64,000 nucleotides of DNA from an uncultured Dehalococcoidia bacterium (GCA_958296245.1 OY282458.1:2234197-2298196); one strand, 5' to 3'. Counted from the first letter of the stretch, positions 5,567-64,000 are shown. Made by a program: numbers and translations. Notes: generated by a model from the sequence alone, not told the origin.

Positions 5567-5618
5567 ATCGAGCCTCGCGTGTATTATAGTGTCGCAAGCC
5601 TTATGGAGGGTGGTCTAG

Positions 5619-49014: not shown

Positions 49015-49091
49015 GGGCCAGTAGCTCAGCCGGTTAGAGCGCAGTCCTGATAAGACTGAGGTCCGTGGTTCGAGTCCACGCTGGCCCACCA
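49015..49091 (+). tRNA. tRNA-Ile (anticodon GAU) with an encoded CCA
   Basis: Hand-folded cloverleaf: acceptor GGGCCAG/CTGGCCC, D arm GCTC..GAGC, anticodon stem CAGTC/GACTG with loop CTGATAA, T arm CGTGG-TTCGAGT-CCACG, and 3' ACCA. Confidence 0.9.
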
Positions 49092-50668
49092 TTCTTGACG
49101 GTAGACAGTACCGGGCCGTGCAGAGCGATCTCCTCGACGTCCCTTCCGGGTATGGGGCTGTCGTCGGGCATGGGGATGGAGTAGTGGACGACGGCGTTGC
49201 CGGGGCTGACGACGACCTCCTTGACGAAGCTCTCAATGAAGGCTCTCGACTCGGTGAGCTCGCTGGTCTTGAGGAAGTCGCTCATGTCCTCTGCGTAGGC
49301 GGTGATGGTCTCCACGTCGTCCAGGACCACCCTGCGCTCCGAGAGGACGACCTTCGCCTCCTCGGCTGTGGCCTCCAGCCGCTCCCGGCGCTCCCTGTGA
49401 TCACGGATGCGAGGGGTTACGTCGGCCATGTCGAGGTCGGTGGTCTCAACCAGGTTGTACAGTCGGTCCAGCCTGCGCCGCACCTCCGCAAGCTCCGACT
49501 CGGCGGTCTGAAGCCTCTGGCGCTGCTCGTGGGCCACGCCGTCCATCTCCTCGTCCACCAGCCGCACCAGACCGCGGATGTTGCCCTCGGTCAGGATGTT
49601 GGAGCGAATCTGGCCGACGACCAACTCCTCGAAGCGCTTGGCGTTGAGCCTGGGGGCGTCGCAGGCCCCGCTGCCCCGCTTCATCAGCGACTGGCAGACG
49701 TAGTAGGAGAACCGGCCGCTCTTGGAGTCCTGGCCGGAGAGCGCCCGGTCGCACGTCCTGCACCTGACCAGTCCGCTGAGCAGGTAGGAGCTTCCGACCC
49801 TGCGGGGGTGAATCCTCCTGGGGGCGCGGGAGCGCAGTTTCCGGTTCACCCGGCGGAACTGGGATTTGGAGACGATGGCGGGGAACGCCCTCTCCACCCG
49901 CACCGGCTCGGCCTTGTCCTTGGCCTGGGCTCCCCAGATCAGCGTGCCCGTGTAGACCTCGTTCTTGAGGATGAAGTGGACGGTGTTCTTGGACCAGAGC
50001 TTGCCTGCGGGGCTGGCGAGACCTTCGTCGTTGAGGGTCTCAGCGATGGGCAGCATCCCCTTTCCGGCCTGCGCCATGTCGAAGATGCGCTCGACTACGG
50101 GCGACGTGTCCGGGTCGAGTTCCAGCGTGGGGCGTTTCTTGGGCCCGTCCTGCACCATGACCCTGTTGTATCCGTAGGGCGTCCTGCTGCCGATCCAGTA
50201 GCCCCGAGAGGCGGCCTCCCGCATCCCCCTCAGAACCTCCTGGGCGAGATTCTCGCTGTAGAACTCGTCCACGCTCTCGATGATTCCCTCAAGCAGCTTG
50301 CCGGTGGGGGTGTCGTCGGCCTGCTCGGTGATGGAGACGACTCGAACGCCCTTGCGCCGGAGCAAGGATTTGAAGGCGACGGCGTGCTCGCGCTTGCGTG
50401 TGAAGCGGGAGAACTTCCAGACCAGAATCTCCCTGAACGGAGCGTTGGTCTTGGTGGCCGCGTCGATCATCTTGCGGAACTCCGGCCTGTCGGCGATGCG
50501 CCCGCTCTCGGCCTCGTCCACGTACTCGCGGGCGACGAGGTACCCGTTCTTGCGTGCATAGTCCCTGAGCGCCCGCATCTGGGCGGCAACGGAAAGGTCC
50601 ACGTCCTGCCGGTCGCTGGATACTCTGGCATAGAGGGCCGCGGGCGTGTAGTCGGTCAGCTGGTTCAT
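49034..50668 (-). CDS. large serine recombinase (resolvase/invertase catalytic domain, recombinase domain and zinc-ribbon/coiled-coil)
   Basis: N-terminus AALYARVSSDRQ (catalytic Ser), ..DEAESG....RPEF..M, Cys cluster CRTCDRAL...YYVCQ...GSGAC, and a long helical region. ATG 50668 lies 8 nt after AAGGAGG. The last codons run antisense through the tRNA. Confidence 0.9.
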   Translation of the reverse strand: MNQLTDYTPAALYARVSSDRQDVDLSVAAQMRALRDYARKNGYLVAREYVDEAESGRIADRPEFRKMIDAATKTNAPFREILVWKFSRFTRKREHAVAFKSLLRRKGVRVVSITEQADDTPTGKLLEGIIESVDEFYSENLAQEVLRGMREAASRGYWIGSRTPYGYNRVMVQDGPKKRPTLELDPDTSPVVERIFDMAQAGKGMLPIAETLNDEGLASPAGKLWSKNTVHFILKNEVYTGTLIWGAQAKDKAEPVRVERAFPAIVSKSQFRRVNRKLRSRAPRRIHPRRVGSSYLLSGLVRCRTCDRALSGQDSKSGRFSYYVCQSLMKRGSGACDAPRLNAKRFEELVVGQIRSNILTEGNIRGLVRLVDEEMDGVAHEQRQRLQTAESELAEVRRRLDRLYNLVETTDLDMADVTPRIRDHRERRERLEATAEEAKVVLSERRVVLDDVETITAYAEDMSDFLKTSELTESRAFIESFVKEVVVSPGNAVVHYSIPMPDDSPIPGRDVEEIALHGPVLSTVKNGGPAWTRTTDLSLIRTAL

Positions 50669-50685
50669 CGGTGTGTCCTCCTTGC

Positions 50686-50883
50686 TCACTCCTGATCGTT
50701 CCGGCGGGCCTCGGCCCGTTGGCGGCGCTCTTGCCGCAGCCACGCCCGCTCCTGCATGTACAGGCGGATGGCCTCGCGGAGGAACTCGCTCATGTTGCGG
50801 CCTTCCTCCTTCAGCACCTGCTGCACCTGCTCGGCCATTTCCGGCGGCATGGAAAAGGTAATGGCCTTTCGGGTCGTGGGCAT
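50686..50883 (-). CDS. ribbon-helix-helix (CopG/Arc-like) DNA-binding protein
   Basis: KAITFSMPPEMAEQVQQVLKEEGRNMSEFLREAIRLYM is a beta-strand plus two helices. ATG 50883 follows GAGGAGG. It lies 17 nt upstream of the recombinase gene. Confidence 0.75.
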   Translation of the reverse strand: MPTTRKAITFSMPPEMAEQVQQVLKEEGRNMSEFLREAIRLYMQERAWLRQERRQRAEARRNDQE

Positions 50884-50904
50884 TCTCTCTTTTTGCCTCC
50901 TCAA

Positions 50905-50921
50905 GTATGACACAGTCATAC
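50905..50921. promoter_or_regulatory. perfect 17-bp palindrome (candidate operator) in the RHH/recombinase leader
   Basis: GTATGAC-ACA-GTCATAC, located between the RHH start codon and a TTGACA hexamer (minus strand, 50955..50950). Confidence 0.4.
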
Positions 50922-51129
50922 CCTTATCATGAACGTTCCTAGCCGCCGTTGTCAAGGGCCGGGCCTCTGTGAGTGGCAATCATATTCGGGTAGAATGGGT
51001 CCATAAACGTTCTGAGGAATGATTGACGGGGAGAGCGTCAACAACATCGTAAACTTCTCTCCCAGCCATTGTTGCAAATAGGACATTCGGTCGGGGTCAC
51101 CTCAAGATCCATAAGTGGGACATCATCCA

Positions 51130-52995
51130 ATGACGCAGAATCAGCGCGAAACACGAACCGTCCAACTTGAGAGTTGGGAAGTAGGTGGCGAGCTACTAGA
51201 TATTCTGTCCCGCGGCCTGTATTCAGATGCTAAAGACGCGCTCAGGGAGTACGTGCAGAATGGCGTCGATGCTGGAGCCAAACACATCTTGATTACGGTG
51301 GACGGAGCTCAGGTAGTTATCAGAGACGACGGAACCGGGATGGATGACGAGGGGATGCGAGCAGCTCGCAGATTCGGAATGTCTAACAAGAGTCCCCAGG
51401 ACATGGTGGGTTATCGTGGCATCGGAATATATTCTGCATTTGGTATATGCGAAGAGATGTCGATCACAAGCCACCAAGAAGGGATGCCAAACTTGGTAGG
51501 CTGGAGATTCCAGTTTGGTGAAATGCGCCGTTTGCTTGAAGCAGACAAGGCCTCTGACACTCGCCAAGGAATCGGACTGCCAGACCTCATGTATCAGTAC
51601 ACCGAATTATTCACTGAACCCTACCGAGGTAATGTTGACGATCACTTCACCGTCGTCGAGATTGACGGCATAGGTGAAGAATATAGAGCCCAACTAAACA
51701 ATGCCGCAGAAGTCAACGATTATCTTCTGAACACGATCCCCGTAGCCTTCTCAACAGAGGAAGGCTACGGTCGAACTGTCAACGATTGGTTAGCAGAACA
51801 TGTAGGACTGAATCCAGTTCGAATCTCCCTTCAGGTCGCCGATGAGAGTGAGTTTGATATCGAGCCATTAGTTGCTCAAGGCGTTTATGATGCCGAATCC
51901 GACTGGATAAAGGCGCCAGATGGCACCGCATTGGCCTTCGTTTGGTACACACTCTCCACTACTGGCAGGCAACTTGCCGTCCAGAACGGTTTATCTATGA
52001 GTGGATTTCTTTTGAAAGTGAAGGGCTTCACTTTGGGAGACCGCCTAGCGTTGAAAGGACTGTGGCCAGCTGTCGGTGGAGGAACATTGTACCACCACTA
52101 CACGGGAGAAGTTCACATTCTAGCGACTGACCAGTTGTACCCCAATGCAGCCCGGAATGACTTGGAATCGAACCCTGCTAGGCAGCTTTTCATAAAACAG
52201 GCGGAAGACTTCTTCTACCCGCTCAGCCGAAAAGCGCGGGTAATGCAGGCGAAGACAAGGGCAGCGCGACTGCTCGAAGGCATAGATGTCGCGATAGACC
52301 GTCTGAATGAACAGAAGAATGCACCAAACGTGAATGCGTACGAAATATACCGAAATAGCGAGAACTATCGAAAAGAACTAGAGAATGTGTTTCAGGAGAT
52401 TGAACGGCATTTGCGAAAGCCCCGTGGCAGGCCTCGCGTGCAACTCGACCAAGTCCAGCAAGACGCGTTGGATGAGGTCATCAAAAGGTTGCGTGGGTCC
52501 ATTAGTGAACTAGGGGGACTGGCAAGAGATGCGCAGCGGCGAACCCAGAAGCCCAAGCGGGAAGCGACGCAGCCTCCTCCGCAAGTAGGTTTCCTAAACA
52601 ATGCCCTCAGTGCTACGTTGCAGATGGCGGAGAAGACATCTGATCCTCGCTTTGCCGAGGCAGCGACGTTATTGAAGCCACTGGTCAATACCAGGTCAGT
52701 TCCACGGGCGATAGGAATTCTTGACGAGCTGAAGGCGTCGGGCATGGAACTAGGTGTTGAGGTAGAGTCCGCAAGAAGGGAGTTGCGGGCTTCAATAGGA
52801 TGGTCTCCTCTTGCACCTGTCTCGCTAGAGGAGGCTCTAGCTCAACGAGGAGTTTCCCTGGAAGGAGAGCGTGAGGAGCGCCTAGTCAGAGCTATTGACC
52901 GCGGCTTGGTAGTAGGTCTAGGTGGAAGAGGAGAGGCGTTTGAGACTGTGCTGCGAGCCGTTGCCGAAGGAGTCGCCGAGGAAATGGGGAACTAG
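51130..52995 (+). CDS. GHKL-superfamily ATPase (HATPase_c_3 / MORC-MutL-Hsp90-like), paralog 1
   Basis: Bergerat-fold motifs in order: N box ALREYVQNGVDA, G1 IRDDGTGMD, G2 GYRGIGIYSAFG. The C-terminal 400 aa or so are helical and uncharacterised. The start may be GTG 51115. Confidence 0.8.
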   Translation: MTQNQRETRTVQLESWEVGGELLDILSRGLYSDAKDALREYVQNGVDAGAKHILITVDGAQVVIRDDGTGMDDEGMRAARRFGMSNKSPQDMVGYRGIGIYSAFGICEEMSITSHQEGMPNLVGWRFQFGEMRRLLEADKASDTRQGIGLPDLMYQYTELFTEPYRGNVDDHFTVVEIDGIGEEYRAQLNNAAEVNDYLLNTIPVAFSTEEGYGRTVNDWLAEHVGLNPVRISLQVADESEFDIEPLVAQGVYDAESDWIKAPDGTALAFVWYTLSTTGRQLAVQNGLSMSGFLLKVKGFTLGDRLALKGLWPAVGGGTLYHHYTGEVHILATDQLYPNAARNDLESNPARQLFIKQAEDFFYPLSRKARVMQAKTRAARLLEGIDVAIDRLNEQKNAPNVNAYEIYRNSENYRKELENVFQEIERHLRKPRGRPRVQLDQVQQDALDEVIKRLRGSISELGGLARDAQRRTQKPKREATQPPPQVGFLNNALSATLQMAEKTSDPRFAEAATLLKPLVNTRSVPRAIGILDELKASGMELGVEVESARRELRASIGWSPLAPVSLEEALAQRGVSLEGEREERLVRAIDRGLVVGLGGRGEAFETVLRAVAEGVAEEMGN

Positions 52996-53004
52996 TGGAA
53001 GGCA

Positions 53005-54003
53005 ATGGCAGGAAGATATGGTCATGGGATGACGCTTTACTACTCGAGTGACGACAAGGATCTTGTGAGGGATAAGTTTGATCTGCCTTTAGTCGAGGCA
53101 GTTGCTCGAAGGAAAGAAGGGAAGTTACGATATTTTGGGTTGCCCGGCGAGGATGCTCTGGACTTGCAGAGCTGGGGTAGCCTTTGCGACTACGTAGCAG
53201 CCGTGGAATTCTCCCGGGAGAGATTCCAGACGGTCAAGCATGTACTAAGAACACAATTTGGTAGCATAAGACATAGAGCTCACCTTGGCGATGTAGACAA
53301 GGTGATTCTGAGAAACAGGAGTGGTATACCACCCACGGAGTTCGTTTCAACTACCAACCGTCCGGGAGCTGGGTACATTTGGGATTTTGATGTTATCTAC
53401 TTGGACTATTTTGGGAAATTTCTGCCATATGAACGCGGTGGCGCTGAAGTTCGGAACAGAGCAAATGCTCTCAGAAGGCTGTTTGCACCCGACCGCCAGG
53501 ATGGATGGCAGCCGTGGCTTCTAATGCTCACAGTCGAGTCACGGCTATTCGGGCCTAATGATAGAGAACAGATGCGGCAGTTTCTTTCTGCGTCAAAGGA
53601 AGAGTCAGACGACGAGACTCAAAAGGCTATTGACTTCCTTCTAGACGAAACAGTCAGTACAAGGGAGCAGGCAGCGAGGCTTGTTCATGGCACGTTGAGC
53701 TACATCCTTGCTGTGGCAGCGTCCAATTCGGACGTACGGGTTTACCCCAAGCCCACCATGCTGTATCGCGGGGCCAACAACACCCCTATGCTTCACTTTG
53801 CATATGAGGTGACGCCAGCCGGATTGTTGTCAGGGTCTCAGCCAGTGTTACCCTTACTGAGGTCACCACTACTCCGAGTAAGGGATGACCATGCTGAGCC
53901 CTGGTTTGAGTTACTATCTTCACAACCGCCCGGTCAGACTAATTCAAGCCTGAGAGCGACATTGGACTTCCTGGATGAAGGACAGATCGAGCAAATCGTA
54001 TAG
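53005..54003 (+). CDS. hypothetical protein, partner of GHKL paralog 1
   Basis: It begins 9 nt after the GHKL stop, behind GGAAGG. No family was recognised. The short motifs RYFGLPGEDALD ... AAVEF ... LGDVD ... FDVIYLDYFG occur in the order of Rossmann methyltransferase motifs I-IV, which is only a weak resemblance. Confidence 0.6.
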   Translation: MAGRYGHGMTLYYSSDDKDLVRDKFDLPLVEAVARRKEGKLRYFGLPGEDALDLQSWGSLCDYVAAVEFSRERFQTVKHVLRTQFGSIRHRAHLGDVDKVILRNRSGIPPTEFVSTTNRPGAGYIWDFDVIYLDYFGKFLPYERGGAEVRNRANALRRLFAPDRQDGWQPWLLMLTVESRLFGPNDREQMRQFLSASKEESDDETQKAIDFLLDETVSTREQAARLVHGTLSYILAVAASNSDVRVYPKPTMLYRGANNTPMLHFAYEVTPAGLLSGSQPVLPLLRSPLLRVRDDHAEPWFELLSSQPPGQTNSSLRATLDFLDEGQIEQIV

Positions 54004-54032
54004 TGCCCTTTGGCAAGCACTGTCAGCGCGAA

Positions 54033-55055
54033 TCATCCTCCGCTCTGCCTTTCGATTCGATCAACTGCTTCTCGGATTTTGCGAAGCTCAAAGAGGCATT
54101 TCTTGCGCTGTTCTGAATCCATGTGTTTCATATCAGGAATCAGGTCCTTGTCCAGAAGTCCTTCTCGGAATCGCTTGAAACGGTTGAGCCACATGTTGTC
54201 GACTCCGCGGTCTCTGGCGCTTTCGAATGCTCGTTCAAAACTCCCTTCCCCGGACATCAGTATCTTGATTGGCTGAGGACCTGCTTTGGTCACGTCAAGG
54301 ACTTTGACCAGTTTATCTCTGACGTCTCTTGCCGTTTCAATCTCGTCGCTCTTGATCTTCTCGACGACGACTTCATCCAAGCCTGGGTTCATCTGTCGAG
54401 CCTTCTTTACGGCGTTTGACTTCAAGTACTCGTCGTAATAGCTCCACCTGTTTACGTCGTTCTCGTCGTGGTCGACCATGAATTGGTATGTGCTAACGAG
54501 GTGATTCACCAGTCGACTTGAAAGACCCATTTCTTCAGACATTGCTTGAATGCTGACGCCATGCATGACATTACGACGATATAAGTAACCTGCTTGCTCG
54601 TATGGGGCCCAGTCCTTCCTTCCGATGATGTGGTACTCGCCGAGCAGCGCAAACACAAGCTTCTCGCTTATGTCGGCAGGCAACAGCCGAACTTTGGCTT
54701 TGCCCCACCTAACGGCATCTAACCTGGCGAGTTCGCGACATGCGGCTAATCTGCTGTTCCCCTCCAGTACTACAAGGTCACCATCCCTTACCAACATCGG
54801 GTCTGTAAGGCCACCGTTTGCCCTTATTGATTGGATGAGTTGCTTGACGTGGTCCATCCTGTTTAGCCGGTGGTGGATCTCTTCTTGAGACGGCACATCA
54901 TGCTGCCTCTGTATGAACGAGTAAATCCTTGGGTTATCGGAATAGAAACTCAGATCAATGACCGGAAGGTAACCGTTCTTGACAGGTACCTCCTCGCCTC
55001 CGAGTGTAAGGGAGTCGTTGACCCACACATCCTCAGCCATCATCTGTGTCTCCAA
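54033..55055 (-). CDS. ParB/Srx-fold N-terminal domain protein, paralog B (last gene of the operon)
   Basis: ..SDNPRIY.. and LVVLEGNSRLAACREL (GxxR-type ParB box). It is collinear with the gene at 56966 (GRKDWAPYEQAGYLY versus GPRQWDPYSKAKYLDY). Confidence 0.7.
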   Translation of the reverse strand: METQMMAEDVWVNDSLTLGGEEVPVKNGYLPVIDLSFYSDNPRIYSFIQRQHDVPSQEEIHHRLNRMDHVKQLIQSIRANGGLTDPMLVRDGDLVVLEGNSRLAACRELARLDAVRWGKAKVRLLPADISEKLVFALLGEYHIIGRKDWAPYEQAGYLYRRNVMHGVSIQAMSEEMGLSSRLVNHLVSTYQFMVDHDENDVNRWSYYDEYLKSNAVKKARQMNPGLDEVVVEKIKSDEIETARDVRDKLVKVLDVTKAGPQPIKILMSGEGSFERAFESARDRGVDNMWLNRFKRFREGLLDKDLIPDMKHMDSEQRKKCLFELRKIREAVDRIERQSGG

Positions 55056-55060
55056 CTGGT

Positions 55061-56530
55061 CTATGCATTCAATATGGCCCTCAGGATGTCTCCGAATTCG
55101 TAGGACATCTCCTTCTGATAGGTCTCCCTGTCGATGTCACCCTGTGCGAGCTGCGCTGCTACCCGCTTCGAGTGAAGCAACGCCTCGACCCATTCGTCAA
55201 TCGAGTCGCGCATAATCAGGTTGTGGACATGGCAGACCCTGTCCTGGGATATTCGGTGGATTCTGTCCTGAGCCTGTAGATAGTCGTCCAAGCTGAACAG
55301 CCGGTCGTAGAAGATAACGTGGTTCGCCACGGTCAGTGTCAGGCCTTCCTTGGCGGAGCCTGGAGTGGCAATGAACACCTTGGCACTTGGCTCATCAAGG
55401 AAAGTCTGGATAGCATCGGTCTGCTCCCTTGTGCTCAGCATCCCGTGGACCTGCTGAGGGTTGTGCCGGCGCAGTACTCTTGATAGCCACTGGACGTTCT
55501 CAACGAACGACGTCCAAACTATGCACTTCTCTCCACTCTTGACTATCGAGGAGACCAACTCAATTAGAGTCTCCAGCTTCCCGGGCTCGACCTGGTAGCT
55601 CGGGTCTATCAGAGTGGGGTTCGACGCGACTTGTACTAGCCTGAGCAGACGCTTCAACACCACGTCCGACTCGTCGGCCACGAGCCGCCCGTCCTGGAAG
55701 ATGATTGCCCGAAGGGACTCCCTTACCTGTCGGTACATCTCTTGCTGCCGAGGTTCCCATTCGGTCACCACGGGGTGAATGACTTTCTCGGGCAAGCTAA
55801 TCTCGGCACTTTCCTTAGTCTCCCTCACGGCAAAGGCCGATATTGAGTGGAATATGCGCTGTAACTGAACCTCCAAGGCCGCTTGCCTGCGGTCTACTCC
55901 GGCCAGGTCGTTGGAAAGGGCCACAGAGCGCTTGAATTCCCCAAAGTCATCGCCAAGCGACGCGCCGTGGTCGAGGAACTTGATCTGCGACCAGATGTCG
56001 TGCGGGCGATTGGAAACCGGGGTTCCTGACATGATCACTCGCTTGGTAAACATAGGCGCGAGACCGAGGAACACCTGGGTGAGAGCAGCATCGGGGTTCT
56101 TGATCTTGGTTGACTCGTCGAGAATCACTCCCACATTCCTGGTCCTTAGAAACAGGTGCATTCGTTCCTCTTCGGCCCTCACGGCCTCGTAGTGAGCGAG
56201 CATGACGCGGGCGGGACTGTTGAAGACGAAGAAGTTGCCCCCGCGGCTAGTGGTCAGGACCCGAGGAATGAGTTGGGAGTGAGAAGCAAGTTCCTTCTGC
56301 CAGTTGTGAAGGAGCCCCTTCTTGACAACAATCAAGGCGGTATCCAAGAGCCGTTGAGACAGCCAGTAGACAAGGAGGTCTATCGCAACCTTCGTCTTGC
56401 CCAATCCCTGCTCATGGAATATGGCAGCATACTCGAGGTCCTTGACGGCATCGACAGCCTCCAACTGGTATGCGAACGCCTCGTGTTTCAGGGTAAGGTC
56501 CGGCTCCCTCTTTAGCGTCAGCTTCTGCAA
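55061..56530 (-). CDS. SNF2-family helicase/translocase (compact, 489 aa)
   Basis: Motif I EQGLGKTKVAI, motif II VILDESTKIKN, SGTPVSN, helicase-C block GLTLTVANHVIFYD and motif VI QAQDRIHRISQ. The TTG start overlaps the upstream gene by 13 nt. Confidence 0.85.
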   Translation of the reverse strand: MQKLTLKREPDLTLKHEAFAYQLEAVDAVKDLEYAAIFHEQGLGKTKVAIDLLVYWLSQRLLDTALIVVKKGLLHNWQKELASHSQLIPRVLTTSRGGNFFVFNSPARVMLAHYEAVRAEEERMHLFLRTRNVGVILDESTKIKNPDAALTQVFLGLAPMFTKRVIMSGTPVSNRPHDIWSQIKFLDHGASLGDDFGEFKRSVALSNDLAGVDRRQAALEVQLQRIFHSISAFAVRETKESAEISLPEKVIHPVVTEWEPRQQEMYRQVRESLRAIIFQDGRLVADESDVVLKRLLRLVQVASNPTLIDPSYQVEPGKLETLIELVSSIVKSGEKCIVWTSFVENVQWLSRVLRRHNPQQVHGMLSTREQTDAIQTFLDEPSAKVFIATPGSAKEGLTLTVANHVIFYDRLFSLDDYLQAQDRIHRISQDRVCHVHNLIMRDSIDEWVEALLHSKRVAAQLAQGDIDRETYQKEMSYEFGDILRAILNA

Positions 56531-56973
56531 TCAGTCGACCCCCCTGATGTGGTTGTAGCACCCCGCCAGTTCATTTCTGACAGTACGACGGTTTCAACTT
56601 CAGTCAATTCCTCTCTAATGCGAAAGTGAGTGAGTAATGACCGGGCGAGTCGCTCAATGGGCCATGGCACCGCCAGGACGAAGGCCGAGCCCTCTGCCAT
56701 TCCGCATCTTCTTAGGAAGGCTGTCACTTGAGCCTCCGTGTGCGAGTTCTCCAGGTCCCCCATGCTCTTGGCTTCCCCAATGACCACTCGTCCCTGTTCG
56801 CCGAGCATGGTATAGGCGTCAGGGACGTACCCGTCAATGGGAGGTGGCCGATTCAGAGACCGACGGCCTACGGAGTCGGTGAGAACACGTTCTCCCCGTC
56901 CCTCACAGAATCTATCGGAGATATAGCTGTGAAGTATGGCAACCAAGTTCGAGTGTTCTTGTGATTCAGGCAT
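56518..56973 (-). CDS. PD-(D/E)xK-fold nuclease-like protein
   Basis: GYVPDAY followed 13 residues later by VIGEAKS, which is the PD...ExK arrangement. It is small (151 aa) and overlaps both neighbours (8 nt and 13 nt). Confidence 0.65.
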   Translation of the reverse strand: MPESQEHSNLVAILHSYISDRFCEGRGERVLTDSVGRRSLNRPPPIDGYVPDAYTMLGEQGRVVIGEAKSMGDLENSHTEAQVTAFLRRCGMAEGSAFVLAVPWPIERLARSLLTHFRIREELTEVETVVLSEMNWRGATTTSGGSTDCRS

Positions 56974-57994
56974 TCGTAGTGGAGGGCGAGGCGATAAGCC
57001 TACAGAGTTCGACCAACCGGTCCCTGGCCTCGGTTAGAGCGTGATTCTTGGGAGTATTGAGATCTTCGCGGAGGCGAAGGAAGTCTGTGTAGCCCATCTT
57101 GGCTATTCTGTTCGATAGCGCGTCGGCCAGTTGGACCAATGTGGCTTCTTCCAGGGCCTCTACCGTAGAAGGGCTGTCCAGGACCTTCTCAGCTTCCCGT
57201 GCTCCGTGCGTCAAGAACACGCCTCGGGCCTGTGAATTGGTGAGGATTGCCGGGAGCTTTCTGACACGGTCGCTTGGATACAGAATCTGGTCTTTCACCC
57301 ACCTGGCGAAGTCTGTCTTCGTGTGGCCGGAGGTTACGAGAGCTTCTTGGACCCTTGGAGCTTGCATTTCAAGAAAGGCGCTGAACCGGGTCGGGTCAAA
57401 CTGGTCGTCACTCGCTAGGAGTGGCCGGTAATGGTCCTCCATGTCGTTGTAGGCGTCGATGAATCGGTGCACCTCGGTCCTCTGACCGCCACAGAAATCG
57501 ATGATCTGATCGGTTGTCAAGTGCTCCGAGTTACTGAGGTAGTCGAGGTACTTGGCTTTGGAGTAAGGGTCCCACTGTCTTGGACCGACCAGGTGGGCTT
57601 GCAGCCGAATGGCATCGATTTCCTTCCTGTCGAGTTGGTCGTAGACGATCGCCGGAATCTCGCCCCACCTACCATCGACATCGTCCCGCTTGAACTGGCG
57701 GTAGATCAATGCACGCGTATTCCCCTCGATGACTACTAGCTTGTTCACGGTTTCTCGGTTGACCAGAATGGGATGGATTAGCCCTCCATGCGTTCTGATG
57801 GATGCCCTTAAGCTCTGGAAGGTGGTCGTGCTCTCCCCCTGCTCGTAGTTGGCGGCGCCAAGAGCCAGACTCATCTGTTCATCAGTTACCTGTCCATCAT
57901 ACATCTCAATGTAGCGCGCCACCCGGGGATTGGACGCGTCGAGCACAAGGGTGTCGACTGGAAGCATCTCGAATTGACCATTTCTTGCAGCCAT
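56966..57994 (-). CDS. ParB/Srx-fold N-terminal domain protein, paralog A
   Basis: LPVDTLVLDASNPRV, IHPILV and LVVIEGNTRALIY. SD GGGAGG lies 7 nt upstream of ATG 57994. Confidence 0.7.
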   Translation of the reverse strand: MAARNGQFEMLPVDTLVLDASNPRVARYIEMYDGQVTDEQMSLALGAANYEQGESTTTFQSLRASIRTHGGLIHPILVNRETVNKLVVIEGNTRALIYRQFKRDDVDGRWGEIPAIVYDQLDRKEIDAIRLQAHLVGPRQWDPYSKAKYLDYLSNSEHLTTDQIIDFCGGQRTEVHRFIDAYNDMEDHYRPLLASDDQFDPTRFSAFLEMQAPRVQEALVTSGHTKTDFARWVKDQILYPSDRVRKLPAILTNSQARGVFLTHGAREAEKVLDSPSTVEALEEATLVQLADALSNRIAKMGYTDFLRLREDLNTPKNHALTEARDRLVELCRLIASPSTTNA

Positions 57995-58034: not shown

Positions 58035-59636
58035 CTAGCTTGGCGTCGGCGCCCCAGTGTCATTCAGTGGATGCTGGTCCTGGGTATCACTCGCGGTCCT
58101 TTGATTAGGGGCTATGGCCGAGCCATATCGTCCCACCTTGGACGCTTCAGCAAACACCATTTCAATCAATTCTCTCGCGTAGCTAGGTGAGGGCGCGAGA
58201 GTCGCCAAGGCCCCGAATACCTTCTGGTAGACCACAGCCTCCGCAGGAGGGATGTCGCCAAACCTCTGCGGCTCGGTCTCGACCGAAAAGTTGCTTAGTT
58301 TGTCCTCGGCACTATCGAGCCTCTCAAGATTGCCGTTATCGAGGTTTCTCCTACCGACGCCTTTGCGAATCTCCTGGACTTCCTGCAACGCCTGCCGAAC
58401 CAAACCGGCCGCGTCTTTCGAAGTGAGATACCCAGACGTTGCTAAGGCATAGAGGTCCTCGATGTTGCTCAGTGCAGAGAGAGTCTTCCTAGCGCGGTTG
58501 CGAGCCGTGGATTCTCGCCTGCACCGTGTGGCGATGCTGCGCAGAATGGGGGTCAGTTGGTTTTCGAGGTTACGCAGATGTGGTCCGGGTTCAAAATAGT
58601 CACGCCTGGCGTTGGGAATGATACGTGCGTCGACGATGTGTATCTCCCCAACGCACCAACGGTTGAACCGCTCCTCTGCAAATAGGTGGTCGAACGCCGC
58701 CTCGCCGCCAACCTGTATATTCCCCACTCTGGCCCTGATGCCACGCACTCGCTGTTCTTTTGGAATCGCGCCCAGGTAAGATGAGTGCGCGACCCAACCA
58801 ACGGCCGCATCCCCAGCCTCGTCGACTCTGGGTATGCGGACTACCTGAAACTCAGTGAATTCGGCATCCCTGTTTGCCGAGAGTTGGACCGACTCCCCGT
58901 ATGGTCTCAAAATCGGGTCCGGGTCGCCTTCTAACAGCACTTCCAACGTCAGTGGCGCCTCATCTGCATGGAACAGCCCTTCGACACTGTCGGCAAAGGG
59001 AAAGTTTGAATCTATGGGAACCGGGCACACTTCGCCAACGTAGTCGTGCACCGCGTCACGATTGAGCAGCACTCCTGTGGAGTGACGCGCTACATCTCCG
59101 ACTTCGACCTCGAAGAAGTGCTCAGGATGGTCCGACCCTGGCAAGGTTTCCACGACGACACAGTCGAGAATAGCTTCTTCGAGCTCAGAGCCCGTGGAGG
59201 TCAACTCGGGAAGCTGGTCACTATGCCACGTGATTCGGGTTACCGCTTGGTCCTTATGGGCACGAGTAGTAAATGAAACTCTCTTCGCGAACGCAAGGCC
59301 GACGAGCCGGCCGACGCCACGGAACCCTCTGTCGGTCCCCAATGTCTTATCACTGCGTCCGATGGGCAAAAGTCGGTCAAGGGCTTCCTCGCGGGACAGG
59401 CCAGGGCCATTGTCTAGAATCCGGATTCGGCGTTCAGTGCGGTCGACATCGATTATTACTCTCGCTCGACCGGGTAGCTCTCTGGTAGCGACGGCGTCGG
59501 CCGCATTCTGTAAGTATTCCCTATACATGGATAGCGGGTCGTGGTACATACCAGTTGTCACAAGTCCTAGAAGGCCCGCACCCGAGAGCGCGGGCGTTTC
59601 CTGAGTGCCGAGGGAATTGGTGGTATGCGTACTCAA
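58035..59636 (-). CDS. GHKL-superfamily ATPase (HATPase_c_3-like), paralog 2
   Basis: N box MYREYLQNAADA, G1 ILDNGPGLS, G2 GFRGVGRLVGLAF. The TTG start overlaps the radical SAM stop (TTGA). Confidence 0.8.
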   Translation of the reverse strand: MSTHTTNSLGTQETPALSGAGLLGLVTTGMYHDPLSMYREYLQNAADAVATRELPGRARVIIDVDRTERRIRILDNGPGLSREEALDRLLPIGRSDKTLGTDRGFRGVGRLVGLAFAKRVSFTTRAHKDQAVTRITWHSDQLPELTSTGSELEEAILDCVVVETLPGSDHPEHFFEVEVGDVARHSTGVLLNRDAVHDYVGEVCPVPIDSNFPFADSVEGLFHADEAPLTLEVLLEGDPDPILRPYGESVQLSANRDAEFTEFQVVRIPRVDEAGDAAVGWVAHSSYLGAIPKEQRVRGIRARVGNIQVGGEAAFDHLFAEERFNRWCVGEIHIVDARIIPNARRDYFEPGPHLRNLENQLTPILRSIATRCRRESTARNRARKTLSALSNIEDLYALATSGYLTSKDAAGLVRQALQEVQEIRKGVGRRNLDNGNLERLDSAEDKLSNFSVETEPQRFGDIPPAEAVVYQKVFGALATLAPSPSYARELIEMVFAEASKVGRYGSAIAPNQRTASDTQDQHPLNDTGAPTPS

Positions 59637-61255
59637 ACCAGTTGCGTGCCTTTGATTGCAAGTGCTTCGTCATGGTCGAACAGGCCGGCATCCTCGACGA
59701 CCTCGTCCTCCTCAAGGTAAGCGCCATGCCCGGCCATTTCCCTGATGAGCTGATGACCGTTCGTCTTCGCGTCGTCCTTGGTATCTAGTCCGTGAAATGT
59801 CATCAACTGTCGGAGTTGTCGGTCGACCGTTTGGTCGTTCGCCAGCTCCTGAAAATGTCTTGGCCCCATTCCATTCCCGTTGGACGGATTGGCCAGAAGA
59901 CGCACGAACTCCTTCTCCTGGAAATCTGAAAGGCGCTGACGAAGCGAGTCGTACTCCTCCCTCTGGGCTCTCCCTTCTCCGTCTTCAAAGTACTCTCGGT
60001 GGAATATGAAGGCGTGCGGCAACCTGAGCAACCTCTCGAATTCTTCTGCATTGTCGCCATAGGCCCTCAGAAAGAAGGATGGGCTTCCGCTGACAACGCC
60101 CTTGGTTGCCTGGAGCATGAGCTGGAACGAACGGAGGTAGTATCGGTTCCAATTCTTGCCCACATGTGACCGGTCCTTCAACGTCACGGGTTGGTACCGC
60201 ATCGGAAAGGACCAGATCCGAATCCCCAACTCCTCATTCAAGTCGATGTTGAGACGCATTCGCTGGTAAAGGTCCGTTGGAGTATCCATGAAGTTGTACA
60301 GCATGTAGTTCGACAGCGAAGTGATCTGATTGTCAGCCGCCATGCGTATCGACCGCTCATAGACCTTCCTGACGCCAATATGGTCGAAGGCGATTCGAAG
60401 GGGACTGATGCAGATGGTGGCCATCTCGCGCAGGAACATTTCTGACTTGGCGAGAATTCGTGCGTCCACCCCTTGATTGAAGTCCACCCGGCGCCTAACC
60501 GGCCTGTTGCCGTCGCGTGTCAGCTTCGCGCCTGGCGTGAAGCCCAGGTCGCGAATCTCGGCAATCACCTCCTTGAATCTAGCCGACGCTGTGATGTTGT
60601 TGTCCATGAGCACGAGGTCCTTCTTCTCCCCGTGCCGTTTGCTGACTTCTTCAACCAGATTGAAAAGGGGTGGCATCTCACGTTGGGCGCCCTCCAATTT
60701 CGGAACCCCGCAGAATGAGCAGCTTCTAATGCATCCACGCGAGGCGTATCCGAAATATGCATCATGTACTGGGTATCTGTAGTCGATGTGATCGAGGATT
60801 CCATAGTCGGGCACCATTTCCTCGATTGGAGTGCCGGTCAAGTCGTCAGCGCCAAAATCGTAGTCGTCGGCCGACAAAGCAAGAGACGCTGCGGGAGGAC
60901 CGTCGAGCAGGCCCCTTACGAAGCGTACGCCAGCCCAGCGGGGTTCATTCAGGAATGCGTCAAGCATGAGCGAAACCGCGATGCCTCCCACAAACACGCG
61001 CTCAGCCTGACCTCCTGCAGCCCGTATGGCGAAGTCTATTGCCGAGGCGGTCCGATTCCACTCGAAGGTGAAGAGGGTGGTCACATAGACTCGGTCCCAA
61101 GCTTGGTTCAACACCTCTTGGTCTTCGCCCTTAATGAACTTGACGTGGTCGCCTCGGCCAAGTGGTCCGTGGTAGGCGGAGAGTTTCATCAAGCCCAATG
61201 GGGGGTACTTGTTTGGGTAGCCGGGTTCAATTAGTAGGACCTGCCTGGAAGGCAT
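59633..61255 (-). CDS. radical SAM enzyme with an N-terminal B12-binding-domain-like region
   Basis: CxxxCxxC cluster motif in YASRGCIRSCSFCGVP. N-terminus VLLIEPGYPNKYPPLGLMKLSAY resembles the flavodoxin/B12-like domain of class B-type radical SAM proteins. The C-terminal 150 aa or so are acidic and unassigned. Confidence 0.8.
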   Translation of the reverse strand: MPSRQVLLIEPGYPNKYPPLGLMKLSAYHGPLGRGDHVKFIKGEDQEVLNQAWDRVYVTTLFTFEWNRTASAIDFAIRAAGGQAERVFVGGIAVSLMLDAFLNEPRWAGVRFVRGLLDGPPAASLALSADDYDFGADDLTGTPIEEMVPDYGILDHIDYRYPVHDAYFGYASRGCIRSCSFCGVPKLEGAQREMPPLFNLVEEVSKRHGEKKDLVLMDNNITASARFKEVIAEIRDLGFTPGAKLTRDGNRPVRRRVDFNQGVDARILAKSEMFLREMATICISPLRIAFDHIGVRKVYERSIRMAADNQITSLSNYMLYNFMDTPTDLYQRMRLNIDLNEELGIRIWSFPMRYQPVTLKDRSHVGKNWNRYYLRSFQLMLQATKGVVSGSPSFFLRAYGDNAEEFERLLRLPHAFIFHREYFEDGEGRAQREEYDSLRQRLSDFQEKEFVRLLANPSNGNGMGPRHFQELANDQTVDRQLRQLMTFHGLDTKDDAKTNGHQLIREMAGHGAYLEEDEVVEDAGLFDHDEALAIKGTQLV

Positions 61256-61318: not shown

Positions 61319-61537
61319 CTATGCACCCTTACTGAGAGAGATGCTTGGTGTCAAGGTACTCTCTCGGGCTGTTACCGGCTTGACTTGCGCGTCAGGGGCA
61401 CTCTCGTCGAGATGGTCCCGGATTAGCCGAGCTATCAATGTGCTCTTCTTGAAGCCCCTTTCTTGGCAGTAGGCGTCGAATCTGTCGAACTCCTCAGAGT
61501 CCAGAAGAACGCTGATTTTCACACGCTTGCGGTTCAT
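61319..61537 (-). CDS. ribbon-helix-helix (CopG-like) protein, first gene of the operon
   Basis: KRVKISVLLDSEEFDRFDAYCQERGFKKSTLIARLIRDHL. ATG 61537 is preferred over the track start at 61579. Confidence 0.7.
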   Translation of the reverse strand: MNRKRVKISVLLDSEEFDRFDAYCQERGFKKSTLIARLIRDHLDESAPDAQVKPVTARESTLTPSISLSKGA

Positions 61538-61557
61538 ATCTGCACCTTTCGTTGTTA

Positions 61558-61586
61558 TTGGTAGCTCACTTCGCCTCACAAGTCAA
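61558..61586 (-). promoter_or_regulatory. candidate sigma-70-like promoter of the RHH/radical-SAM operon
   Basis: On the minus strand: TTGACT (61586..61581), a 17-nt spacer, then TACCAA (61563..61558), about 20 nt upstream of ATG 61537. The -10 hexamer is weak. Confidence 0.3.
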
Positions 61587-61596
61587 TACCTTTGCG

Positions 61597-61614
61597 CAGT
61601 TGTGCGCACAATTG
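61597..61614. promoter_or_regulatory. palindrome (candidate operator) in the divergent intergenic region
   Basis: CAGTTGTGCGCACAATTG has a perfect 12-bp core TTGTGCGCACAA (61600..61611) and is 16/18 symmetric overall. It sits just upstream of the -35 candidate above. Confidence 0.4.
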
Positions 61615-61694
61615 AAATGGTCGCTTGCGTCTGTGAGAGGGCCTGTACATCGGGTAAAATGAGGGTCACGGACCTTGCTATAGGGGGCTTCCTC

Positions 61695-62051
61695 GTGGGG
61701 ACTTTCAAGTGGCCGGTACGGATATCCAGCATGGACGACCAACAGGCTAAGGATATGGAGGCGACGGTGGACACCGGCGCATCATTCACCACGCTCCGCT
61801 CCCGTCTTCTGGGGGAGTTGGGCATCGAAGCTACGGGCAAGCGGGGGTTCCTGTTGGCGGACGGACGGCGGGTCGAGATGGCCTACGGGGAGGCCCGCGC
61901 AACGACCAACGGCGATAGTGTGACGACGACCGTGGCCTTCGGTGAGAACGAGGCGCCTCCGTTGTTGGGAGCCTACACGCTGGAGGAGTTGGCCCTGGCG
62001 GTGGACCCGCAGGCCCAACGGCTGGTTCCCACCCACATGATCTTGTACTAG
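61695..62051 (+). CDS. retropepsin-like (clan AA) aspartic protease, stand-alone, paralog 2
   Basis: VDTGAS catalytic motif. It is collinear with the gene at 16507..16863 from VRISSMD to LVPTH(L/M)I(M/L)Y. GTG 61695 is chosen by alignment with the paralog's start. Confidence 0.75.
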   Translation: MGTFKWPVRISSMDDQQAKDMEATVDTGASFTTLRSRLLGELGIEATGKRGFLLADGRRVEMAYGEARATTNGDSVTTTVAFGENEAPPLLGAYTLEELALAVDPQAQRLVPTHMILY

Positions 62052-62177
62052 GACCGGCAAAGTTTCGCCGGCCACGTCGCCTCCTGCCGGTTGAAGCAGT
62101 GGCCGAGGCCCAAGACCAGGGACAGTTCCAAATCCGCTTGCCCCGGACCGCGGATGCTCGGAGATGATAGCGAAAGT

Positions 62178-62462
62178 ATGCACGCGAATGACCCGATAGA
62201 CGTCTCTTACCCGGAGCTGTTGCCGAAGGACTTCGGCGAGCGGCTGGCGCGGCTCGTGGAGCTCGCTGGCCTGTCGTGGGAGGAGTTCGCCGAGCGGCTT
62301 GGCGTCGGGTGTGACCGCGTGACTGAGTGGCGAGGAGGCGAGGTCCCCACGGGCGGGGAAGTGTGGCACATCATGCGCTTCGCGTTGTTGGTCCCCGGCG
62401 GAACGGAGCTGATGCTTCCCCAGAAAGCGGGTCCAAACGAGGGCGGAGAGCACCTTCCATGA
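62178..62462 (+). CDS. helix-turn-helix (Xre-like) DNA-binding protein
   Basis: FGERLARLVELAGLSWEEFAERLGVGCDRVTEWRGG is an HTH_3-type pattern. The start is uncertain (track start 62091). Confidence 0.6.
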   Translation: MHANDPIDVSYPELLPKDFGERLARLVELAGLSWEEFAERLGVGCDRVTEWRGGEVPTGGEVWHIMRFALLVPGGTELMLPQKAGPNEGGEHLP

Positions 62463-62759
62463 CTCGAGTCAAGCTTCGGCTGGGGGTACACAAGCGACAG
62501 AATGCGCGTGAGGTCAAGGAGCGCAAGGTCGGCGCGTACTGGCGTTCAGCCTGCTGCCATGCGATTCCGTTGTGGGTCTCCGAGGCGTAGCTAAAGGAGC
62601 ATGAGTGCGGCCGCAGAGACTTAGGGACGTTCCCATTCCAATCGTGTGGACGCCCGATGCCCACTACAGGTAATTGCTCGAGCGACGGGCTCCGAGTGGT
62701 GAACGAGGTTTGGAGAGGCCAAAGGGTGTACTAGTGATAACCGAGGTTTGCCGAAGAGC

Positions 62760-64000
62760 ATGAATATAGCCGTGACTTCGACGGAGGACCTATCCTATCA
62801 ATACTATGTGGCGGAAAGCGTGGTGGAGCAGTTCGCACTGAGCCACACGCCAACCGCGGTCTTACGTGAGTTGGTTCAGAACGAGTACGACGCCGGAGGT
62901 CAAGAGCTCGGCGTCCACTTCGGCAGCGAACGGCTGGTCATCACAGGAAACGGCGACCCCATAGATGCAGCCGGATGGGAGCGGCTCCGAGTGATGCTGG
63001 GTACTGGATGGGTTCCCAACTCGGACACCTACATAGAAGCCAAGAAGAGCAGCATTGGTTCTAAAAACTTCGGACTCAGGTCACTATTCACTGTCGGTGA
63101 CGAGATAAGGGTGTACTCCGGGGGCAAATGGTCTGCCCTCAATTGGCGTCGAGGTTCCATTTACCCACCCAGGGAAACGGACGACTCGCCCCAGCGTGGA
63201 GTTCGCATCGAAGTTTCGTACCGTCCCACTAAAGCTGGAGCACTCGAACCCTTCACTCCCACTAGGCGAAGCGCGTGGGCCCGGGAGATTGGCGATTCGT
63301 TGGCAGAGACGCTGATCAAGCTCGCCCATCCCAGTCGGTCCCAGAGCCTCCGCCGAGTCATCCTTAAGACCGATGGCATGCCGGGCGTCTCATGGACCCA
63401 GCGCGCTAGCGAGGATCGAACATCGGCCAGAGGGATTCGGGTAATTCGTCGGCAGGCCCTCCAGGAAAGCGCCGGTCATCGGAACAGAGTCGTTGAACTG
63501 GAGTACCAAGCACGGGTTCAGATTCCAGAATTGCATCGGCAGAAGGACTATCCCTCGTATTACAGGATCAACCGAAACAGAATGTGGGTCGGAGTCTCTC
63601 TGAGACTCTTCAGAGGACGCCCCGACGCAAGCTCCCCCGGCATGGTGTACTACCCGCTTGGCGCTCCTGTGGCCAGAACCGGAAACTCTGTGAGCCTCAA
63701 CGCTCCGTTTGAGATGGACAACAACCGAGCCAACATTGTGCCCCCCTCGTCCAGCTCATGGAACGAGTGGCTGGTTCAAGAGCTGGTTGAACTCACCACC
63801 AGACTCCTAATCACAGACTGGTACGAGCGCTTCGGTGCGGGCGCTTATCTGGTCCTGGAGGCGGGAGAGCGTGATTCCGGCAACCACCTTGCTGAGGCTT
63901 ACGCTGGCGCAGTAGAGGATTACCTGCGTAACGAGGAGGCCTGGGCAAGCCGCGGTCGAAGTAGAAGAAAGGTCACGTTCGTCACGGCCGATACGCTGGC
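62760..64000 (+). CDS. GHKL-superfamily ATPase, sacsin-like N-terminal ATP-binding domain, paralog 3; the 3' end lies outside the window
   Basis: My own translation from ATG 62760 is open to the window end, and this ORF is absent from the track. It carries an N box LRELVQNEYDAGG, VITGNGDPI and IGSKNFGLRSLF. An in-frame stop lies at 62700. Confidence 0.7.
   Translation, partial: MNIAVTSTEDLSYQYYVAESVVEQFALSHTPTAVLRELVQNEYDAGGQELGVHFGSERLVITGNGDPIDAAGWERLRVMLGTGWVPNSDTYIEAKKSSIGSKNFGLRSLFTVGDEIRVYSGGKWSALNWRRGSIYPPRETDDSPQRGVRIEVSYRPTKAGALEPFTPTRRSAWAREIGDSLAETLIKLAHPSRSQSLRRVILKTDGMPGVSWTQRASEDRTSARGIRVIRRQALQESAGHRNRVVELEYQARVQIPELHRQKDYPSYYRINRNRMWVGVSLRLFRGRPDASSPGMVYYPLGAPVARTGNSVSLNAPFEMDNNRANIVPPSSSSWNEWLVQELVELTTRLLITDWYERFGAGAYLVLEAGERDSGNHLAEAYAGAVEDYLRNEEAWASRGRSRRKVTFVTADTL

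Follow-up and report, generated by a model that had tools for sequence, protein, structure and literature searches.

A GHKL ATPase and a predicted methyltransferase-fold partner form a replaceable arm of a radical SAM island system in an uncultured Dehalococcoidia bacterium

The window analysed here is a stretch of 64,000 nucleotides (nt) from an uncultured Dehalococcoidia bacterium (GCA_958296245.1 OY282458.1:2234197-2298196). It holds two adjacent plus-strand genes, for a GHKL ATPase (GHKL1) and a partner protein of 332 residues, that converge on an operon encoding a radical S-adenosylmethionine (SAM) enzyme as well as a second GHKL ATPase (GHKL2). The conserved link of this pair is to the operon's radical SAM gene and often to GHKL2 too, and the operon's ParB-nuclease-SNF2-ParB cassette is optional. 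The pair is one of at least two alternative arms on the radical SAM module, with a DGQHR-domain protein in the equivalent position on plasmids. Its two genes belong to a larger mobile-island system that has the radical SAM enzyme at its centre and probably modifies or polices DNA. The two genes of the arm are these:

51130..52995, plus strand: GHKL1, an ATPase of the Hsp90/SMCHD1/MORC type (Pfam, NCBIfam, alignment, AlphaFold2 and Foldseek)
53005-54003, plus strand: the partner, 332 residues, a protein of predicted class I SAM-methyltransferase fold (NCBIfam, AlphaFold2, Foldseek and alignments)

A previous reading of this DNA from its sequence only (the sequence-only reading) had located both open reading frames (ORFs) correctly, apart from the start of GHKL1. 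The listed ORF opens at the GTG 51115, and the ATG 51130 is the better start because the homologues measure 620-621 residues. The close spacing of the genes is as first described: the GHKL1 stop TAG (52993-52995), the sequence GGAAGG (52997-53002) and the partner's ATG (53005) leave 9 nt between the genes, and GGAAGG precedes the ATG by only 2 nt, which is short for Shine-Dalgarno spacing. The gap from the pair to the stop of the converging gene, earlier put at about 30 bp, measures 29 nt (54004-54032), and a lower guanine-plus-cytosine content (G+C) is common to both sides. We looked for a terminator or a plus-strand promoter around the pair and found none convincing.

The linkage was followed in 38 loci, about 30 of them non-redundant, that came from exact-protein look-ups and scans of reference genomes and metagenomes and had their system proteins mapped; they are numbered with the prefix L. 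A diverse alignment of 62 partner-family sequences was unsuited to locus scanning. In every locus with enough flank, an archaeal contig included, a GHKL gene stands immediately before the partner and shares its strand, the adjacency that the sequence-only reading had proposed to check. The gap between the two genes is -4 to 17 nt in all loci. Only a remnant of the GHKL gene stands before the partner in L019, and in L022 the preceding gene is cut by the contig end, yet it bears a GEIHIV motif.

Wherever the contig allows the check, the partner has a radical SAM-like gene no more than a few kb away, its (T/S)RGCxxxCxxC motif intact. The sole exception is L026, a 4.9-kb contig with a DUF5131 gene after the partner instead. 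The association persists in the archaeon and at partner identities of 24-26%, and it spans five architectures:

Architecture 1: three genes, GHKL and partner converging on a radical SAM gene of ~450 residues
Architecture 2: four genes, GHKL, partner, a 540-residue radical SAM enzyme and GHKL2
Architecture 3: the four-gene set plus ParB-p151-SNF2-ParB (p151 being the candidate nuclease), collinear in L005 and L014, convergent in the window, L010 and L011, and split in L017
Architecture 4: the Latescibacterota form, with a GHKL of ~660 residues, a Cys-less B12-like paralogue and a radical SAM enzyme of ~530 residues
Architecture 5: a minimal form of ~500, 285 and 390 residues, on the archaeal contig L020 (flanked by fibrillarin and Nop5) and in L027

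SNF2, p151 and the partner occur together in the window and six other loci. The CxxxCxxC motif is kept in all 27 associated radical SAM-like proteins listed and is absent from the B12-like paralogues of 443 and 451 residues.

The earlier reading had left two options for the pair. One, an independent two-gene GHKL-plus-effector defence unit merely parked by an unrelated operon, does not survive the linkage and is very improbable. It would suit the position of the pair in the window, on the strand opposite the operon and with its own upstream region, and also the plasmids that carry the operon without the pair. However, not one adequately flanked locus has the pair but lacks a radical SAM gene, the genes are collinear on one strand in L005, L014 and L018, and the association holds in the archaeon and where the partner has only 24-26% identity.

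The other option, an arm of the neighbouring operon, stands in a refined form: the pair is linked to the radical SAM gene and often to GHKL2, and is itself replaceable. The identities of GHKL1 and the partner to the window correlate with r=0.96 (n=21). Because these identities co-vary and the two genes overlap or lie at most 17 nt apart, GHKL1 and the partner behave as one unit. This unit is a fast-evolving arm, faster than the radical SAM-GHKL2 module: over the ten loci with a 540-residue radical SAM enzyme, mean identity to the window is 83% for the radical SAM enzyme, 65% for GHKL2, 56% for GHKL1 and 51% for the partner.

Full-length homologues of the radical SAM enzyme, at 55-58% identity, are found on plasmids of cultured Alphaproteobacteria. 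The Roseomonas mucosa plasmid p2-AD3 (L040, NZ_CP034905.1) carries the radical SAM gene with counterparts of GHKL2 (33%), ParB-like protein b (44%), p151 (31%), SNF2 (49%) and ParB-like protein a (43%); GHKL1 and the partner are absent from it, and a DGQHR-domain gene stands immediately upstream of the radical SAM gene. On Novosphingobium aromaticivorans pNL1 (L039, NC_002033.1 58383-68740), there are DGQHR, radical SAM and GHKL genes and a second DGQHR protein; here too a DGQHR protein takes the pair's place. The plasmid DGQHR proteins score 124-217 bits with TIGR03187, whose cutoff is 58.85, with DpdB as the next-best match, and the plasmid versions adjoin partition and stability genes.

Since these alphaproteobacterial plasmids carry the radical SAM-GHKL2 set without the pair, the operon is autonomous, and the pair is therefore a replaceable arm and not part of the core. 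As to whether the two travel together, the pair accompanies the radical SAM gene wherever this can be checked, L026 excepted, but the operon also travels without the pair. On pNL1, a PIN-like gene and a third GHKL gene lie just upstream of the system.

We are confident, as far as a predicted model allows, that the partner adopts the seven-stranded alpha/beta fold of class I SAM methyltransferases and keeps the motifs that serve cofactor and catalysis in this fold. Its AlphaFold2 model, built from a 29-sequence alignment, has a per-residue confidence (pLDDT) of 89.1 and a predicted template-modelling score (pTM) of 0.90. In the PDB, Foldseek finds 422 matches at E<=1e-3, and the leading ones are all class I methyltransferases. 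The best is Aquifex Trm1 (3axs, E=6e-7), DNA methyltransferases such as M.BseCI score near it, and the viral library, too, returns methyltransferases. Searches of the PDB by sequence and profile gave only chance-level matches and no methyltransferase.

The sequence-only reading had noted four strings in the order of methyltransferase motifs, FGLPGE, AAVEF, GDVD and VIYLDYFG. All are in the translation and fall on conserved or invariant columns, with strand positions taken from the AlphaFold2 model:

Motif I: YFGLPG, residues 43-48, after beta1; Y43 and G45 invariant, P47 and G48 at least 90% conserved
Motif II: AVE, residues 66-68, at the end of beta2; E68 at least 90% conserved
Motif III: GDVD, residues 95-98, after beta3; G95 at least 90% conserved, D98 invariant
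Motif IV: LDYFG, residues 133-137, after beta4; D134, Y135 and G137 invariant in the subfamily

Y43, G45 and D134 are still invariant across the 62-sequence alignment of the wide family, which reaches down to 19-27% identity. The loop of motif I reads GxxG instead of GxGxG. The fold guessed earlier is thus upheld, but the label 'degenerate' attached to it is unsupported, because the glycines of motif I, the acid of motif II and the aspartates of motifs III and IV are conserved or invariant. The C-terminal half, helical and beta-rich, has invariant residues of its own outside the recognised motifs (Y254, G256 and H264).

The partner has no match in Pfam, PADLOC or PHROGs, and its only family match is to NCBIfam PP_RS20740 (NF047698; 41.5 bits, E=1e-10). 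With the equivalog cutoff set at 200 bits, this low score makes the partner a distant subfamily of the PP_RS20740 family. Among the 62 wider relatives, 53 match NF047698, and homologues bear a precomputed PF28273 tag. Homologue clusters number 74-93 among 5.8 billion, with full-length conservation, and an exhaustive profile search found 367 representative clusters of the family among 1.84 billion. The family is real but rare, and is island-borne, not housekeeping.

The likeness to Trm1 bears on an RNA-directed alternative, in which tRNA or rRNA is the target of a Trm1-like partner and the radical SAM enzyme. Its modification would be a resistance or toxin function that is mobile, or would shut off translation in infection. 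Trm1 tops the structural matches, other RNA methyltransferases rank high, and the radical SAM enzyme weakly matches MiaB/RimO-type enzymes. Yet the Foldseek matches are fold-generic, with M.BseCI and similar DNA methyltransferases scoring alike, and the partner has no match to Pfam TRM even at E<=10, which leaves the Trm1 likeness at the fold level. As the accessory genes are DNA-oriented and the family is rare and island-borne, we regard this alternative as quite unlikely.

A relationship of the partner to TcmP was also considered and ruled out, as none of the 62 family members matches TcmP in NCBIfam. In L026 (1722-2234), a DUF5131 protein (Pfam E=5e-62) comes after a distant member of the partner family, where other loci have the B12-type radical SAM enzyme, and the contig also has converging ParB-like and SNF2 genes. 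DUF5131 is the usual neighbour of TcmP ('three-Cys-motif partner protein'), which is a lead rather than a test. The arrangement in L026 suggests a pairing analogous to that of TcmP.

The ATP-binding boxes of GHKL1 are intact as first read. The N box (ExxxNxxD), G1 (DxGxG) and G2 (GxxGxG) are invariant across 24 homologues, and ATP motifs are present in every locus. Residues 40-133 match Pfam HATPase_c_3 (E=1.2e-15, 58.2 bits against a cutoff of 25), and more than 270 homologues show full-length conservation; together with the partner's homologues, they put both genes well outside chance. In the AlphaFold2 model (pLDDT 83), a Bergerat fold at ~1-200 is followed by a beta-rich transducer at ~205-345 and a helical C-terminal region at 349-620. 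Of the ~400 residues after the ATP-binding domain, where the sequence-only reading saw helical, coiled-coil-like stretches, only 349-620 are helical.

By Foldseek, the model matches the N-terminal and middle domains of TRAP1/Hsp90, SMCHD1, MORC2 and MORC4, at ~1e-10 over 410-460 columns. Sequence-profile matches in the PDB are confined to the first ~120 residues, the Bergerat fold of HtpG, TRAP1, MutL and MORC3, and the nearest named models by sequence are Hsp90-like, BbrUII and sacsin at the domain level only. The transducer bears an invariant GEVHI...YPNAARxDLE motif, with IPNARRDYFE as its counterpart in GHKL2. We take this middle-domain motif to resemble the Hsp90 catalytic loop NLSREMLQ, whose arginine reaches the ATP gamma-phosphate, again as a lead and not a test. 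Judged by its model, GHKL1 is a predicted dimerising, ATP-gated clamp-type ATPase.

Other identities of GHKL1 were tried and rejected. As an Hsp90/HtpG orthologue it scores 32.2 bits against a cutoff of 455 and 22.3 against 371. As MutL it scores 26.7 bits against 180, and its C-terminus is an unrelated helical region. As a sensor histidine kinase it has no HisKA match and only 23.7 bits for HATPase_c against 26.4, and its fold matches are not kinases. The partner has no housekeeping homologue, the two genes are syntenic and GHKL1 is neither a histidine kinase nor a MutL or HtpG orthologue, three outcomes on which the sequence-only reading had staked the pairing. Within the helical tail of GHKL1 (532-600), D532, E546, R549, R553, G557, S559, D590 and R600 are invariant. 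These residues, like the invariant ones of the partner's C-terminal half, may belong to surfaces on which a substrate or a partner docks.

The converging operon has seven genes, as had been proposed, once a 72-residue regulator-like ORF is counted. In window order they are these:

54033..55055, minus strand: ParB-like protein a, 340 residues, with an 'LEGNSR' motif (NCBIfam parB_part E=4.5e-5; PADLOC PDC-M38A E=5.5e-8; phrog_3694 E=2e-13)
55061..56530, minus strand: SNF2-family helicase, 489 residues (Pfam SNF2-rel_dom E=2.6e-25 and Helicase_C E=5.7e-15; PADLOC ZorD/DpdE-like at the domain level only)
56518..56973, minus strand: p151, a candidate small PD-(D/E)xK nuclease, 151 residues (invariant YVPDAY ... 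VVIGEAK(S/T))
56966..57994, minus strand: ParB-like protein b, 342 residues, with an 'IEGNTR' motif (Pfam ParB_N E=0.006, short of its cutoff; PADLOC PDC-M38A E=1.2e-9; PHROG ParB-like families)
58035..59636, minus strand: GHKL2, an Hsp90/MORC-type ATPase distantly paralogous to GHKL1 (22% identical over 395 residues; ATP motifs intact; IPNARRDYFE loop)
59633..61255, minus strand: radical SAM enzyme, 540 residues, with a B12-binding-like N-terminal domain and RGCIRSCSFC at residue 175
61319..61537, minus strand: putative regulator, ribbon-helix-helix-like, 72 residues, first gene of the operon (sequence MNRKRVKISVLLDSEEFDRFDAYCQERGFKKSTLIARLIRDHL; PHROG transcriptional repressor E=7e-4)

The radical SAM enzyme matches phrog_9298 (E=2e-38) and, below threshold, the B12-radical SAM and MiaB/RimO-type families of Pfam and NCBIfam. 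The PD-(D/E)xK signature of p151 is invariant over an alignment of six loci, and p151 has no match in the Pfam, NCBIfam, PADLOC or PHROG libraries; from its motif it is a candidate miniature restriction-fold nuclease. ParB-like protein a is kept in the cassette across loci, and the region upstream of the 72-residue regulator is conserved in L010 and L011. The PADLOC matches are partial, to the ATPase head of MzaB/TmtA, the helicase core of ZorD/DpdE and the ParB domain, and PADLOC gave none for the partner, p151 or the radical SAM enzyme. As these matches are at the domain level only, membership of Mza, Tiamat, Zorya, Dpd, DISARM, PD-Lambda-5 or PDC-M38 was rejected.

Tentatively, and at a little under an even chance, we read the whole as a three-module integrative-island system with GHKL1-partner as one arm, a SAM-dependent, ATP-gated and DNA-directed system of modification or a restriction-like kind. 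The pair would be a translationally coupled, co-evolving two-gene cassette on an island made of tRNA-Ile, a serine recombinase and cargo. The system would act on DNA, where the radical SAM enzyme and the methyltransferase-fold partner may install a SAM-derived covalent mark. The GHKL ATPases would be dimeric clamps, gated by ATP, by which the enzymes are loaded or positioned on DNA, and the ParB-nuclease-SNF2 cassette, where present, would attack unmarked DNA. The fast-diverging GHKL1-partner cassette could supply target specificity or a second modification step, the role that the DGQHR protein would have in the plasmid versions. A sensor or specificity role for the pair fits its faster divergence.

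We infer the orientation to DNA from the SNF2 helicase, the two ParB-like proteins, the PD-(D/E)xK-like p151, the plasmid DGQHR proteins and a phage radical SAM neighbourhood. The DGQHR domain is otherwise tied to the Dnd and Dpd DNA-modification systems. In the phage case, a relative of the radical SAM enzyme is embedded among DNA methyltransferase, PAPS reductase and ASCH genes. A more specific version is possible but doubtful: a B12-type radical SAM enzyme and the partner, positioned by Hsp90/MORC-like clamps, would make a new radical-chemistry DNA mark, for example by methylation or alkylation of an unactivated carbon, for self/non-self discrimination, with GHKL1-partner and DGQHR as interchangeable targeting arms.

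Several points weigh against the DNA-directed reading. Many loci have three genes only (GHKL, partner and radical SAM) with no nuclease or helicase, and by the proposed logic they would therefore do no restriction on their own. The substrate could be RNA or a small molecule instead, the partner's best structural match is a tRNA methyltransferase and its fold matches are generic, with template-modelling (TM) scores of 0.3-0.4. The B12-binding domain is weakly detected (the Pfam match is 'weak' in the L020 and L027 homologues, and the NCBIfam B12-radical SAM matches are sub-threshold), which makes cobalamin use uncertain. The core genes match no PADLOC model beyond the domain level, and the nuclease assignment of p151 comes from its motif only. 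No modified base is known, and the system is read here from sequence and predicted models.

The three-gene loci also bear on a small-molecule or cofactor-directed abortive defence, in which the radical SAM enzyme and the partner, once the GHKL senses infection, either produce a nucleotide-like compound that is toxic or terminates chains, or use up SAM, in a viperin-like way and with no DNA mark. With neither nuclease nor helicase in the minimal loci, one of the three proteins there (GHKL, methyltransferase-fold partner or radical SAM enzyme) would have to be the effector, and two of these three are predicted SAM users. Radical SAM defence enzymes that use nucleotide chemistry do exist, such as OpnA of Ophion (bioRxiv 10.1101/2025.09.30.679545). 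Such a defence is nonetheless unlikely here: the recurrent associates handle DNA (ParB-like, DGQHR, SNF2 and PD-(D/E)xK-like proteins), the GHKLs are of the DNA/chromatin-clamp and chaperone type and not known small-molecule sensors, and profile scans show no viperin-family similarity.

The associated genes also touch on DNA repair or maintenance of the mobile element, where a MutL/MORC-like ATPase, the radical SAM enzyme, the helicase and the nuclease would deal with some unusual lesion or structure, or keep the element stable. Radical SAM genes of the spore-photoproduct-lyase (SPL) family near the partner-family loci L022 and L027, the ParB-like proteins and recombinase, and the partition and stability genes near the plasmid versions would be in keeping with it. 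But the distribution is patchy and rare, one rapidly diverging arm with shuffled modules is typical of conflict systems and not of repair, and restriction-modification (R-M), HEPN-RES and Kiwa genes are among the neighbours, which together make this role improbable. In full, the neighbourhoods include integrases or recombinases, insertion sequence (IS) elements, an Eco57I-type methylase, HEPN-RES, KwaA, HSDR_N and Fic.

The nearest precedent for the DNA-directed reading is the MORC/paraMORC family of GHKL+S5 ATPases, which mobile R-M operons combine with SNF2 helicases, restriction-endonuclease (RE)-fold nucleases and methylases (Iyer, Abhiman & Aravind 2008, PMC2292703). Both have a GHKL with intact ATP motifs, then a transducer domain and a family-specific C-terminal extension, and both join it in mobile hotspots to an operon with an SWI2/SNF2 helicase, an RE-fold nuclease (here the motif-based p151) and a methyltransferase-type protein. 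In contrast, that paper leaves radical SAM unmentioned, has ParB in passing only and has no DGQHR partner. The system here has two distant GHKL paralogues, the sequence families nearest to GHKL1 are Hsp90-like rather than MORC, and the partner is not of a recognised DNA methylase family.

With Dnd and Dpd, the system shares ParB-superfamily proteins and an SNF2 helicase beside a modification enzyme, its SNF2 protein matches DpdE at the domain level, and the plasmid versions have true DGQHR proteins with DpdB as second-best match. It differs in having no DndA, DndC, DndD, DpdA (TGT) or preQ0 pathway gene and in its candidate modification enzyme, a B12-type radical SAM enzyme, and the equivalog cutoffs are missed widely. 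With the class B radical SAM enzymes (PhpK, HpnJ, BchE and Mmp10-type), it shares the CxxxCxxC after an N-terminal domain that is weakly B12-binding-like; these are its best but weak NCBIfam matches, all far under the cutoffs. We know of no class B radical SAM enzyme that acts on DNA or pairs with GHKL ATPases.

The partner and Trm1 have in common the overall fold, the order of motifs I-IV and a motif IV LDYFG like D(L/I)DPFG, a likeness that the sequence-only reading had seen. Unlike Trm1 and the class I amino-methyltransferases, the partner has no match to any methyltransferase-family profile, a GxxG loop and a C-terminal half of its own, and it is a rare island gene. The Pseudomonas putida gene that gave PP_RS20740 its name is called a 'hypothetical protein', and a mutation linked to furfural tolerance is all that is known of it (PMC9630843).

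Two recently described defence systems, Ophion (rSAM-PHP-PRTase) and Ambrosia (MTase-HATPase-REC-HNH), come from the same report as OpnA (bioRxiv 10.1101/2025.09.30.679545). Ophion shares a radical SAM enzyme with the present system, and Ambrosia is R-M-like and shares a methylase and an HATPase-type protein. Identity with either was rejected, since the gene sets and domain families differ and neither joins radical SAM with GHKL ATPases, a PP_RS20740-like protein or ParB. A description of this gene set was not found in the literature, and a reappraisal of Dnd and the ProPhylo paper had no bearing on it. A GHKL-assisted modification or restriction-like island system is a known theme, and there is a real chance that its chemistry here is categorically new.

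If the DNA-directed reading is true, radical SAM chemistry, possibly cobalamin-dependent, would join the DNA-marking and policing enzymes of bacteria and archaea, and the uncharacterised PP_RS20740-like family would gain a function. Hsp90/MORC-type GHKLs would then work directly with modification enzymes, which bears on the eukaryotic coupling of ATP clamping to epigenetic marks by MORC and SMCHD1. The system is tractable: relatives of the radical SAM-GHKL2 and ParB-nuclease-SNF2 sets are on plasmids of cultured N. aromaticivorans (pNL1), Roseomonas mucosa and several rhizobia, and the minimal version has three genes.

The low-G+C island that holds both genes of the pair adjoins a tRNA gene and a recombinase gene on its left. 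What looks like its integration module (49015-50979) is made of these features:

49015..49091, plus strand: tRNA-Ile (GAT) (ARAGORN)
49034..50743, minus strand: large serine recombinase with Resolvase, Recombinase and Zn ribbon domains (Pfam E=2e-33, 3e-23 and 7e-12)
50686..50979, minus strand: ribbon-helix-helix protein (CopG-type), upstream of the recombinase (Pfam RHH_1 E=6e-8, above cutoff)

The tRNA-Ile gene, on the opposite strand, adjoins the recombinase ORF and overlaps its 3' end, and is likely the integration site at the island's left edge. The true start of the recombinase is likely the ATG at ~50668, and its homologues flank the same system in L011 and L017. At 51 kb the G+C drops from ~0.65 to 0.50-0.58, being 0.50-0.54 over the pair and 0.51-0.58 over the operon. 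The left flank, at ~0.65, has housekeeping genes, for citrate synthase, a sarcosine-oxidase/GcvT-like protein and a Methyltransf_28 protein. Direct repeats of an att site were looked for and none was found. On the right, G+C stays at 0.57-0.62 from beyond the operon to the window end (61527-64000) with no border found, so the island may reach past 64000. The ORF just past the operon (61527-62051) encodes a retropepsin-like aspartyl protease by its Pfam match (Asp_protease_2, E=1.6e-5).

Phage carriage of the pair was rejected, as tblastn in plasmids and phages and a scan of viral contigs were negative for the partner. Phages do encode stand-alone relatives of the radical SAM enzyme: Marinitoga camini virus 1 (L041, 37383-38465), Phocaeicola phage PV4-TP1 gp47 (L042) and the unverified phage scaffold MT836743.1 (L043). 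The Marinitoga virus protein is nearest to the short radical SAM enzyme of the three-gene type (E=3e-99), and in L043 a GHKL gene lies directly upstream of the phage radical SAM gene.

The Cys-less paralogue of the Latescibacterota-type loci is placed between the ~660-residue GHKL and the true radical SAM enzyme. It measures 443-451 residues, has a radical SAM-like 'LL(V/I)xPP...' B12-like N-terminal domain and occurs in L003, L008, L009 (~4818-6173) and L022 (3774-5105). The SPL-family genes are at 7839-9014 in L022 and 10668-11621 in L027, a few kb from the partner-family loci, and the one in L027 adjoins a ParB_N gene. On one 5.95-Mb contig, L006 and L007 are two identical four-gene copies (GHKL, partner, radical SAM and GHKL2), each amid IS110, IS21 and DDE transposase genes and adjoining an N6_N4 methyltransferase.

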